Source: Candidatus Parcubacteria bacterium (GTDB lineage Bacteria; Patescibacteriota; Minisyncoccia; UBA6257; JAGOQP01). From it: a stretch of DNA of 64,000 nucleotides. A model generated the notes under the pieces. The model was not told where the DNA came from. It searched no databases and was given only the letters and a program-made list of their open reading frames with translations. The stretch covers positions 367,487 to 431,486 of the forward strand of contig AP024682.1 of assembly GCA_025999395.1 (NCBI GenBank). Reading direction: 5' to 3'. The position numbers and the translations under genes are program-made. Shown one piece after another: positions 48,476 to 53,602 of the stretch (position 1 is the stretch's first letter; each line of letters begins with the position of its first letter).

Positions 48476-48500
48476 CTTATTTAGAGAATTTTAGAAGATT

Positions 48501-48571
48501 TGGGGGATCGTCTAACGGTAGGACAGCGGCCTTTGGAGCCGTTAATCCAGGTTCGAATCCTGGTCCCCCAG
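48501..48571 (+). tRNA. tRNA-Gln (anticodon UUG)
   Basis: Folded by hand: U1-A72 acceptor, D stem GTCT/GGAC, anticodon loop CTTTGGA, T arm CCAGG-TTCGAAT-CCTGG, discriminator G. Confidence 0.85.
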
Positions 48572-48606
48572 CTAATAACGTTTTTATTTAAGAACTCGTT
48601 TTCTCT

Positions 48607-49698
48607 TTATTCTCTTTTTTTGAAAGCAAGAAAGATGAGTAAAATGAGGATAATAAACAAGAGAATCAATCCAAGAGTAACTAAGTTATTGTTAGTTCCT
48701 ACTGTTTGAAGAATAGAGGCTTGAAGCGAATTATTATTTGAATAATAGTTTGGGCTAGCTTCCCCACTTCCTGTATAAACATACTGATGAGAAGGAACTA
48801 TAGAAACACTGTAGCCGGGGAAGTTGTTATAAGGAGGATTGACGGAATAAGAGAGATTGTTTGAATATGAATCTTCTGGATAAAGATAAACATATTTTAC
48901 TTGAGGTTCTTGATAAGAAGGATTATTAGTTGAAACACCAAGAGTAGTAAAGCTTAAAATTTGACCGAAAACGGTATTATTTCCACTTGCTAAAACCGCT
49001 CGATAATAGTAAGTGGTAGCCGGATTAAGCCCTCTAACCGTAGCCCAAAAAGTAGGAATTAAATTTTGGGAAGAATAATAAGAAGATGGAAAAATAGTGA
49101 TAGCAGAAGTTCTTTGGTTTAGATTATTAGGAGAAGTTCCATACTCAAACCAAGCTACTCTGTTTTCATTACTCGTTGAAGCTAATCCCCATAAAACCGC
49201 CTCGTAGCTTCCTATGTTTTGGGCGGGATTAGTTGAAACAGTTAGATAGTTACTATCAGAATAATTGTTTTGAGTAATAAAGCTAAGAGTATTTCCGTAA
49301 GTAGTTCCATAAGTATTAAAAGCCACTAAACGAAAATAATAAGTTGTATAAGGATTAAGGTTATTCAAAGTATAGGAAACATTTCCTGCTGAAGAGGTTA
49401 GTTGAAGAGGGGTTATCGAATCAAAAGAAGGACTTCGGCTGTATTCAAAATAATAGGTAGTCTGATAGCCCTTGGGATCAACATAACCATTTAAAGTGGC
49501 GGAGGTAGTAGAAATGTTAGTTGCTGAAAATGTTTGAACAAAGGGAGCATTATTAGTGGTTTGAGAAAAAACTAATTCTCTACTTCCGGCAATTATTAGC
49601 ACAAGAGATAACAAAATTGGTAAAAAGTAGGCCTTTTTCATATTCTTAAAATAGAAATAATTATTTTTGAGAATATCACAAAATTTATAAATCGGCAA
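48607..49698 (-). CDS. secreted/cell-surface protein: signal peptide, two FN3-like repeats, Tyr/Ser/Asn-rich stalk, C-terminal TM anchor + KKRE
   Basis: Repeats ...LNPYTTYYFRLVAFNTYGTTYG... and ...LNPATTYYYRAVLASGNNTVFG...; C-terminal LVTLGLILLFIILILLIFLAFKKRE. Confidence 0.7.
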   Translation of the reverse strand: MPIYKFCDILKNNYFYFKNMKKAYFLPILLSLVLIIAGSRELVFSQTTNNAPFVQTFSATNISTTSATLNGYVDPKGYQTTYYFEYSRSPSFDSITPLQLTSSAGNVSYTLNNLNPYTTYYFRLVAFNTYGTTYGNTLSFITQNNYSDSNYLTVSTNPAQNIGSYEAVLWGLASTSNENRVAWFEYGTSPNNLNQRTSAITIFPSSYYSSQNLIPTFWATVRGLNPATTYYYRAVLASGNNTVFGQILSFTTLGVSTNNPSYQEPQVKYVYLYPEDSYSNNLSYSVNPPYNNFPGYSVSIVPSHQYVYTGSGEASPNYYSNNNSLQASILQTVGTNNNLVTLGLILLFIILILLIFLAFKKRE

Positions 49699-49719: not shown

Positions 49720-50691
49720 TTAAGATATTTGATCTTCGATTATCTCAAAATTTTCTCTTAAGAAAGTTGGTTTTTGAAAAAATATCTTTAGTTCTTCTAT
49801 TTGAGCTGAAGGCGGTCCTTTCTTAAGAATTTCCAAAAAACGGCTCAAACTTATTAAATCTCCTTGAGCTACAACTCTAATGGCAGGCAAATCAACTAAA
49901 TTACAACAAAACCCCTTTATTCCTAAATTTGAGGCAGATTGAAGAGCCAGAAAGCGATAACCTACCCCTTGAACTTTTCCCTTAGCTTCAAAATTCATCT
50001 CAATAGCCCCTTTTAAATCTTCTAAAGCTAAAGCGGAATCTAGAGAAAAATAACCGATTTTTGTTCTAGTTAGTTCTTTAACATACCCTCCAGTTTTCAA
50101 AATTTCTCCTAAATCTCTGGCAAAACTTCTTACATAAAACCCAGCCGAAACTTTAAGCTCTAATTCTAGTTCAATAGTTTCTTTTAAGTAAGAAACAGAT
50201 TTAATTTTGTAGCTGATTAAAGAAACTTCTTTTTCTTTTACTTCGAAATTAATTTTCTGGCGACTTAATTTATAAGCCGGAGTCCCCTTTATTTTAACAG
50301 CAGAAAATCGAGGAGGTTTTTGAGTTCTTTTTTGAGCTAATTGATTAATAGCTACCTCAATTTCTTGACAACTGGGTAATCTTTTTAAGGAATGAAAGAT
50401 CTTTTCTCCTTCAATATCATCAGTAGAAGAGCTAACTCCTAAAACAATTTTTGCTTGGTAAGTTTTATCTAATTTTTTGAGAAAAAGAAAGAGGCTTTTA
50501 GTAAATTCTCTTCCGACTGCTGTAATTAAAAGTCCATTTGCAAAGGGATCGAGTGTTCCTCCGTGACCAATTTTTGTTTTTTTCTGAAAATTTTCTTTCA
50601 GTATTTCTTTTAAAGATAGCTTAAACTTATTTAAAAACTTGGCGGAACTAATGCCGCTTGGTTTGTTTAGAAGAAAAAACCCCTCAATCAT
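49720..50691 (-). CDS. truB: tRNA pseudouridine-55 synthase fused to C-terminal acylphosphatase-like domain
   Basis: TruB KIGHGGTLDPFANGLL catalytic Asp motif; C-terminal ~95 aa AKGKVQGVGYRF...GFCCN matches acylphosphatase signature 1. Confidence 0.8.
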   Translation of the reverse strand: MIEGFFLLNKPSGISSAKFLNKFKLSLKEILKENFQKKTKIGHGGTLDPFANGLLITAVGREFTKSLFLFLKKLDKTYQAKIVLGVSSSTDDIEGEKIFHSLKRLPSCQEIEVAINQLAQKRTQKPPRFSAVKIKGTPAYKLSRQKINFEVKEKEVSLISYKIKSVSYLKETIELELELKVSAGFYVRSFARDLGEILKTGGYVKELTRTKIGYFSLDSALALEDLKGAIEMNFEAKGKVQGVGYRFLALQSASNLGIKGFCCNLVDLPAIRVVAQGDLISLSRFLEILKKGPPSAQIEELKIFFQKPTFLRENFEIIEDQIS

Positions 50692-52416: not shown

Positions 52417-53509
52417 TTAAGGTAAACAGGTTAATTCTGCTTCAATAAAATCATCTAAATCTCCTTCTTCCAGAACTCTTTCCACTTGTGTAGTTTCGCA
52501 GCCAGTTCGATGATCCTTAATAAGTTTATAAGGATTCAGTACATAAGATCGAATTTGACTCCCCCATTCTGGTTTTACTTTGGTTTTTAATTTATCCAGC
52601 TCTTGAATTTTTTCTTTTTCCATAAGCTGGATTAATTTGGCTTCCAAAATTTTTAAGGCTTTTTCCCGATTTTGAGATTGAGAACGCTCGGCTTGAGAAG
52701 AAGCAACCAAACCCGTTGGCAAATGTACAATTCTCACTGCGGTTTCTACCTTGTTGACATTTTGCCCTCCGGGTCCAGAAGAGCGAAAAAATTCTATTTT
52801 TAAATCTTTCTCGGGAATATTTAACCTTTGAAAATTATTGTCGTAATTTAATTCCGGCAAAACTTCAACCAAAGCAAAAGAAGTGTGTCTTAATTGTTGA
52901 GCAGAAAAGGGCGAAATTCTTACTAAGCGGTGAACGCCGCTTTCTTTCTTTAAATACCCAAAAGCAAAGTTTCCTTCGATTTCAAAAGTAATATTTTTTA
53001 AAGGGATTCGGCCGGTTCTTTCTTCGTTGGATTCTTGGGAATAATCCAAAATGATTACCTTCCAATTTTTTCTTTCTGCATAGGCTTTATACATTAAAAA
53101 GAGCATATGAACCCAATCAGCGGCATCTTTTCCTCCAGCTCCAGCGTAAATAGAAACAATAGCATTATTTTTATCCCATTTGCCCGTAAAGATTTTCTTT
53201 ATCTCTAATTTTCTTATTAACCCTTCTACTCTTAAAATTTCTGACTCATCAATTTTTTCTTTTTGAGCAATAAGATGAGCTAAAGAATTTTGAGCATCAA
53301 AAAAGATTTCCAGTATTTCTTTTATTTCGCCAATTTCTTCTAAAACCAGATCAACTTTCTTTTTGTCTTTCCAGAAATCACTATCCTGAAGTAAAAATTC
53401 CTTCTCCTTAAGGAAATTTTGTTTTTTCTCTACCTCAAAGCCAGCCTCCTATTTGGCGGAGGCGGACCGTTAAATCGTTCAGTTTTTGTTGATAATCTTT
53501 TTCTAACAT
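52417..53509 (-). CDS. prfB: peptide chain release factor 2 with programmed +1 frameshift
   Basis: 0-frame MLEKDYQQKLNDLTVRLRQIGGWL then UGA; +1 frame continues EVEKKQ...; GGQ motif SSGPGGQNVNKVETAV. Confidence 0.9.
53435..53450 (-). promoter_or_regulatory. prfB autoregulatory frameshift site: internal SD AGGAGG, spacer CUGG, CUU UGA G
   Basis: Reverse complement of 53435-53450 reads AGGAGGCTGGCTTTGA. Confidence 0.85.
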
Positions 53510-53530
53510 TTTTAAAAAATTTTTACCTAG

Positions 53531-53602
53531 AGCCGGAGGGGAGATTCGAACTCCCGACCTTGGCTTTACGAAAGCCCCGCTCTACCCCTGAGCTACTCCG
53601 GC
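53531..53602 (-). tRNA. tRNA-Thr (anticodon CGU)
   Basis: Hand fold of reverse complement: acceptor GCCGGAG/CTCCGGC, U8, D arm GCTC-AGGGGTA-GAGC, anticodon loop TTCGTAA, T arm GGGAG-TTCGAAT-CTCCC. Confidence 0.85.

Follow-up and report, generated by a model that had tools for sequence, protein, structure and literature searches.

A TruB pseudouridine synthase of Patescibacteria that carries an acylphosphatase domain in place of the PUA domain

Few tRNA-modifying enzymes are as conserved or as well studied as TruB, the tRNA pseudouridine-55 (Psi55) synthase, whose PUA domain is a textbook accessory module. This module (PF09157/PF01472) is carried by bacterial TruB proteins such as those of E. 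coli and T. maritima (1K8W and 1R3E). The PUA domain of E. coli TruB probably positions the acceptor stem, and an enzyme without it binds tRNA almost normally, with catalysis slowed 25-fold (PMC13492117). Eukaryotic TruB orthologues lack the domain (PMC13492117). In yeast Pus4 and human TRUB1 (8jfx), for instance, the catalytic domain is either the last one or is followed by an unrelated extension. Here we describe a gene, truB::acyP, from a 64,000-nucleotide stretch of the genome of an uncultivated Candidatus Parcubacteria bacterium (contig AP024682.1; hereafter the window), whose product has an acylphosphatase (AcP) domain at the place where these bacterial enzymes have PUA. The short TruB proteins of Patescibacteria (204-235 amino acids) have no tail at all, and to this form the fusion adds a 90-residue AcP domain.

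AcP and AcP-like domains are known from several other multidomain proteins, none of which matches this arrangement. In HypF (3vth, 1gxu), an N-terminal AcP domain is followed by zinc-finger, YrdC-like and Kae1-like domains. All three are absent from the fusion protein, whose TruB partner needs no phosphorylated substrate, and the HypF model TIGR00143 gives only a weak match to the AcP part (33 bits versus 466), with no other HypF domain detected by Pfam. An AcP-like domain has been proposed to bind tRNA in the tRNA U34 hydroxylase TrhO (PMC10135228), and Prp3 binds the 3′ overhang of U6 with a domain of AcP-like fold (PMC4520091; 4yhu). However, the AcP-like N-terminal domain of TrhO/YceA/TSTD2 proteins (4f67; 9j5o with tRNA) and the DUF1115 single-stranded RNA-binding domain of Prp3 are each only 11-13% identical to the fused domain and lack the AcP signature, whereas the fused domain is a bona fide member of PF00708. 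The rhodanese domain that is joined to the AcP-like domain in the TrhO/UPF0176 family likewise sets that family apart from the fusion protein. Structure searches also returned AcP-like proteins of Toxoplasma mitoribosomes.

The truB::acyP product is identical to BCX16178.1 (KatS3mg098_407, Candidatus Parcubacteria bacterium) and to MCX7615971.1. An initial annotation of the window had proposed a TruB with an AcP-like domain in the place of PUA. The coordinates it gave for the open reading frame are exact (Table 1), and the strand, which it left unstated, is minus. The motifs it quoted all occur in the translated frame, with KIGHGGTLDPFANGL at residues 40-54, GKVQGVGYR at 238-246 and GFCCN at 260-264. 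Its observation is confirmed, with domain scores far beyond chance, and its interpretation, that an AcP domain occupies the place of PUA on TruB, is supported by the analyses below. Databases already hold such sequences, labelled either ‘tRNA pseudouridine(55) synthase TruB’ or ‘hypothetical protein’. Full-text literature searches found no paper that describes a truB-AcP fusion or mentions acylphosphatase in Patescibacteria.

Domain composition and predicted structure

The N-terminal part of the protein is a TruB catalytic domain, as evident by the Pfam TruB_N match (Table 1) and by a score of 173 bits against the cutoff of 151.45 for the NCBIfam TruB equivalog model TIGR00431. The catalytic aspartate of the GHxGTLDP motif is accompanied by the active-site His, Tyr and Arg residues. 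Specifically, H43, D48, Y78, D92, Y186 and R188 are invariant in an alignment of 29 fusion homologues, and we take these to be the equivalents of H43, D48, Y76, D90, Y179 and R181 of E. coli TruB. Foldseek assigns a TruB-type pseudouridine-synthase fold to the predicted structure, of which ~225 columns align to the TruB catalytic domains 2ab4, 1r3e and 1k8w at 30-33% identity. These structural alignments stop at ~225-237 residues, the TruB_C_2 profile matches in part only, and a Pfam search of the whole protein gave zero matches to the PUA-type families PF09157 and PF01472. The fusion protein is a member of the TruB family by every feature tested save the PUA domain.

The tail that follows is an acylphosphatase domain. 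The Pfam Acylphosphatase profile matches over positions 3-85 of 85 with an E value of 6.8e-16 (58.8 bits versus a gathering score of 22.5), and a phmmer search of PDB sequences with the last 100 residues returned acylphosphatases as all of its top matches (8jfs, 1.2e-12; 2bjd, Sso AcP, 4e-12). Signature 1, V-x-G-x-V-Q-G-V-x-[FY]-R, is represented by A-K-G-K-V-Q-G-V-G-Y-R246, and signature 2, G-[FYW]-x-x-N, by G-F-C-C-N264. The catalytic arginine and asparagine, R246 and N264, are therefore both in place, and they are conserved in the family. Among 42 full AcP domains, the most conserved positions are G238 (95%), V240 (98%), Q241 (98%), R246 (98%, or 41 of the 42), G260, N264 and F315 (100% each), and 50 of the 55 clade members with a tail keep both the Arg and the Asn. 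Judged by sequence, the TruB and AcP active sites are both intact in the fusion protein.

The same two signatures, in the form GxVQGVGYR and GFxxN, are found in stand-alone AcyP (EC 3.6.1.7, PF00708; for example 2bjd from S. solfataricus and 1ulr from T. thermophilus), to which the fused domain is 34-39% identical with a root-mean-square deviation (rmsd) of 1.0-1.3 A. Unlike these free proteins of ~90 amino acids, however, the fused domain scores 59 bits against NCBIfam equivalog cutoffs of 89-131 bits. Some 20 such acylphosphatase models match the tail with 29-60 bits, each short of its cutoff, and the best of them (PRK144xx) reaches 59.6 bits against 119. The tail is thus a member of Pfam Acylphosphatase by hidden Markov model (HMM), by both signatures and by fold, and lies outside the acylphosphatase equivalogs.

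An AlphaFold2 model of the fusion protein, for which the 29 fusion homologues served as the input alignment, has a mean predicted local distance difference test score (pLDDT) of 95.6 and a predicted TM score (pTM) of 0.90. The model has no low-confidence linker between the two domains and would fit a fixed arrangement of one relative to the other. Its AcP domain begins with a strand at residues 230-239, right after the usual point of entry of TruB into PUA, and its fold is nearly identical to those of free AcPs (rmsd 1.0-1.4 A; for the best-matching 4ojg, Foldseek gives a TM score of 0.94 and an rmsd of 1.3 A). In this model, the tail adopts a genuine AcP fold. The idea that the C-terminal region is instead a highly divergent PUA that merely mimics AcP motifs is excluded, since Pfam, phmmer and Foldseek align the last 95 residues as AcP and find neither the HMM nor the fold of PUA there.

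Several residues distinguish the fused domain from 119 stand-alone AcPs, a comparison set that is biased in being composed of the best matches of the fusion profile itself. In addition to Glu231 (Table 1), these are F305 (83% of fusions versus 27% of stand-alone AcPs), K307 (79% versus 6%, with Glu commonest there in free AcPs) and Q276 (86% versus 34%). The fused domain also has one residue more than free AcyP after N264 (NLVDLPA), and the member described here has R272 where the ‘VEV’ strand of AcP usually has Glu. Because the topology of the ferredoxin fold makes them neighbours, we read E231 and residues 305-308 as an interdomain-interface cluster: residue 231, which opens strand beta1, and residues 305-308, which close strand beta4, should lie together near the TruB junction, at the far end of the sheet from the phosphate cradle, and we infer that E231 belongs to that junction. 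The pairwise distances of the TruB and AcP domains correlate (r 0.47, Mantel p 0.001), as fits a long co-inheritance of the two sequences. The fused domains are also shifted towards basic residues, with a median isoelectric point (pI) of 9.0 versus 8.0.

Distribution, decay and origin of the tail

The truB-AcP architecture recurs in ~50 proteins of Patescibacteria. A word-indexed search identified ~30 clusters (90% identity) that share TruB_N and PF00708 and are 37-53% identical to the query, and an exhaustive search of representatives at 50% identity gave 12,008 TruB-like clusters with E<=1e-10, of which ~27 align over their full length. A survey of architectures in the 257 nearest TruBs with our own AcP HMM gave 52 that carry the domain, 107 that end right after the catalytic domain and 98 with some other tail. 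All named fusion members are designated ‘Patescibacteria group’, ‘Parcubacteria’ or ‘bacterium HR34’.

An open reading frame that joins truB to a separate acyP could in principle result from a chimeric assembly or from a mis-called frame, and the prior rarity of the architecture is the one point that speaks for such an artefact. We consider this explanation refuted for practical purposes, however, because the identical protein occurs on 10 contigs (the longest of 568,903 bp) under two GenBank accessions, and because the ~50 diverged homologues with the same fusion are drawn from NCBI, JGI, ENA and Logan assemblies. In addition, the frame is uninterrupted, and the loci L003, L085, L086 and L087, from independent assemblies, have the same single fused gene with the same junction. 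Among the contig-scan matches listed, in which ordinary TruBs dominated, only L005 and L014 are clear fusions. The apparently long matches L069 and L064 (Chloroflexota) proved to be normal PUA-bearing TruBs.

Short TruBs that lack both PUA and any other tail, such as P0029 (L001, 4001-4702), P0028 and P0131, are 204-240 amino acids long, and bacterial PUA-less TruBs of this kind seem common in Patescibacteria. A sampled relative of 291 amino acids, P0075, bears a PF09157 PUA-type tail. The fusions form two or three groups, interleaved with short forms, on a rough neighbour-joining tree that carries no support values. This topology implies that the tail was lost repeatedly or, less likely, gained repeatedly. 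P0029 (233 amino acids) is 45% identical to the fusion protein and lies in the same prfB-ftsE-ftsX-truB arrangement as is found in the window and for P0003 and P0024, with a convergent gene 80 bp downstream of its short truB. An acyP gene beside a short truB, as would be expected of a fusion precursor, was present in neither L001 nor L002. With no acyP next to the short truB of L001, a simple fusion of neighbouring genes is therefore without evidence.

One sub-clade of fusions shows stepwise decay of the AcP active site, with the C-terminal tail still retained. The Arg is intact in P0009-11, which read VQNVGFR, and the catalytic Arg is gone in P0013. The P-loop is gone in P0026, P0035 and P0037, as well as in P0032, in which the Asn is also replaced by Glu and the F-x-K motif (YFRKT) is still there. 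The same motif was recognized by eye, as a C-terminal WFGK, in P0026 and P0037. The tail of P0026 was modelled as a bare ferredoxin-like fold, although the AcP-bearing relatives in the input alignment may bias that fold. The family thus offers a natural comparison series of intact AcP domains, AcP domains without an active site and proteins with no tail, in which the decaying members constitute a natural experiment that parts a structural role of the AcP domain from a catalytic one.

Searches for the source of the tail gave little. With the 102-aa tail as sole query, a word-index search, which is insensitive for short queries, yielded eight candidates and three weak matches. A profile from a 16-sequence alignment of the domain retrieved nothing but generic stand-alone AcPs, from Sulfolobus, WOR-3, Eisenbacteria and other sources, with identities of 30-50%, and neither a donor lineage nor a stand-alone AcP of Patescibacteria is obvious among these matches, few of which carry names.

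Further unusual architectures were encountered among the TruB matches. In P0100 (519 amino acids), TruB is joined to the domains of riboflavin kinase/FAD synthetase (PF01687, PF06574), which echoes the way in which truB and ribF commonly lie side by side, as they do in L069. Others are P0151 (597 amino acids), P0147 (400 amino acids) and P0233 (408 amino acids).

Possible roles of the acylphosphatase domain

Within a single polypeptide, the N-terminal 228 residues are a predicted competent tRNA Psi55 synthase, and the AcP domain, which follows directly without a disordered linker, might be an integrated accessory module of that synthase. Pseudouridine would form as in any TruB, with the Asp48 site receiving the flipped-out U55 of the GUUCGAAUC T-loop. 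The AcP domain would stand in for the lost PUA in positioning the acceptor/T-arm of the tRNA, and its phosphate cradle (G238-R246 plus N264) would grip an RNA phosphate, either the 5′-monophosphate of the tRNA or a backbone phosphate of the acceptor stem. Hydrolysis of acyl phosphates may persist alongside. We tentatively favor such an integrated PUA surrogate, while rating it as somewhat less than probable, because it covers together the conserved cradle, the apparently rigid docking and the retention of catalytically inactive tails. Because E. coli TruB without PUA still binds tRNA, though it is slower, and eukaryotic orthologues lack the domain, a TruB without PUA is viable but improvable, and this viability explains the short forms.

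Several observations weigh against a PUA surrogate. The full AcP signature is what an active enzyme requires, and 50 of 55 tails keep its two catalytic residues, Arg and Asn. The known RNA-binding AcP-like domains of TrhO and Prp3 do without the signature that the fusion possesses. The tail is also dispensable for TruB, because P0029 is tail-less in the same synteny and so many of the nearest TruBs are short. The fusion-specific residues may reflect domain packing alone, and the pI shift may stem simply from a proteome rich in Lys, in a genome of 33% GC.

The main rival is a bifunctional ‘Rosetta-stone’ fusion, in which the small gene of an ordinary metabolic acylphosphatase, acting on substrates of the acetyl-phosphate, caramoyl-phosphate or 1,3-bisphosphoglycerate type, became joined to the 3′ end of truB for co-expression in streamlined genomes, and in which the domain has no part in tRNA recognition or pseudouridylation. 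We regard it as a serious candidate, if a slightly weaker one. It accounts best for the canonical active site, whose catalytic residues are among the most conserved positions of the domain, and for the dispensability of the domain in sister lineages with short TruBs. A fold so close to that of free AcPs, the retrieval of ordinary 90-aa AcPs at 35-45% identity by the domain profile, and a TruB chemistry that needs neither cofactor nor phosphate all agree with it. However, it accounts more poorly for interface conservation, that is, for fusion-specific residues that cluster by topology at the junction, and for the fact that catalytically dead tails are nonetheless kept. The missing linker and the fixed interdomain arrangement with which the model is consistent also speak against an independent enzyme, as does the absence of an acyP gene adjacent to the short truB of L001. 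That the closest named stand-alone AcPs are never from Patescibacteria is a weak argument in the same direction, as few matches carry names.

A more specific proposal is that the AcP active site has been exapted as a reader of RNA ends, such that the cradle (G238-R246, N264), rigidly placed where PUA used to be, would bind mature tRNA by its 5′-monophosphate or acceptor end, or would sense or hydrolyse an acyl phosphate at that site. We consider this unlikely, although if it were true, a PUA-less TruB would have gained a new mechanism of substrate positioning or quality control, an AcP domain with its signature would for the first time be tied to RNA, and there would be a lead on what bacterial acylphosphatases do in the cell, which has long been unclear. 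Still more doubtful is a coupled chemistry, in which the AcP domain at the acceptor end of the tRNA would hydrolyse a mixed anhydride, for example an aminoacyl-adenylate or an acyl-phosphate species, or would sense acetyl-phosphate and so tie tRNA maturation or chaperoning to the energy state of the cell. This idea is unsupported, to our knowledge no such substrate has been reported for any AcP, and the degenerate and tail-less relatives imply that the chemistry is non-essential.

In this family of Patescibacteria, PUA has been lost and a complete small-molecule hydrolase domain is present instead. If the AcP domain aids in tRNA handling, then an enzyme active site has been recruited as an RNA-recognition element, which would hint at acylphosphatase function. 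If the domain is unrelated to tRNA, the protein is a clean example of gene fusion in the streamlined genomes of the candidate phyla radiation (CPR), and its current annotation overlooks a second enzymatic domain. The fusion overturns nothing, and is best viewed as a testable curiosity with a built-in series of natural mutants.

Gene neighborhood

The window has a GC content of 33% and contains no second TruB or AcP within its 64 kb. The local gene order is dnaX (+), tRNA-Gln (+), a membrane-anchored fn3-repeat protein (-), truB::acyP (-), ftsX (-), ftsE (-), prfB (-) and tRNA-Thr (-).

Table 1. Coordinates of truB::acyP, its domains and key codons, and neighboring features in the window
Feature	Position	Strand	Remark
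truB::acyP fusion open reading frame, complete, 323 aa, ATG start	49720..50691	minus	uninterrupted frame
TruB pseudouridine-synthase catalytic domain, residues 1-~228	50008..50691	minus	Pfam
Pfam TruB_N (PF01509), residues 37-187	50131-50583	minus	E 1.5e-34, 120 bits vs cutoff 27.3
Pfam TruB_C_2, partial, residues 188-232	49996-50130	minus	only profile positions 1-45 of 66
Asp48 codon, catalytic aspartate of GHGGTLDP motif	50548..50550	minus	invariant in 29 fusion homologues
Acylphosphatase domain, residues ~230-317	49741..50004	minus	Pfam match 234-317 = nt 49741-49992
Glu231 codon, start of AcP strand beta1	49999..50001	minus	95% of fusions vs 13% of stand-alone AcPs
AcP phosphate-binding cradle G238-K-V-Q-G-V-G-Y-R246, including catalytic Arg246	49954..49980	minus	
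Asn264 codon, catalytic Asn, AcP signature 2 (GFCCN)	49900..49902	minus	kept in 42/42 full domains
F305-Q-K307-P308 motif, end of strand beta4	49768..49779	minus	fusion-specific
tRNA-Gln(UUG)	48501-48572	plus	
363-aa fn3-repeat protein gene adjoining truB::acyP	48607-49698	minus	
prfB (RF2)	~52417-53510	minus	frameshift site near 53435-53455
tRNA-Thr(CGU)	53530-53602	minus	

The two tRNA genes lie on either side of the gene cluster and share the canonical GTTCGAATC T-loop, the substrate of TruB. Neither of them encodes its 3′ CCA. A 69-aa ‘ORF’ at 48500-48709 is spurious, as it overlaps the tRNA-Gln gene. The 363-aa protein has a hydrophobic segment at its N terminus and a transmembrane anchor at its C terminus, along with two fn3/purple-acid-phosphatase-N-like repeats (PF00041, PF16656) and a region rich in Ser, Asn and Tyr. 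At the corresponding position next to the short truB of L001 there is a gene of ~353 amino acids without a Pfam match.

The prfB gene has a classical programmed +1 frameshift, in which the N-terminal frame ‘MLEKDYQQKLNDLTVRLRQIGGWL*’ stops at CTT TGA G, preceded by AGGAGG, and the rest of the protein is read in a different frame. Because of this frameshift, the list of open reading frames holds only the 229-aa C-terminal part of the gene (PCRF profile 121-194 plus RF-1). In bacterium HR34 (L086, BEIK01000004.1, 1-4939), the fusion gene lies away from ftsEX and comes after a run of sugar-phosphate genes, namely those for transketolase, a Glucosamine_iso-family protein, transaldolase and a bacterial-type PGI.
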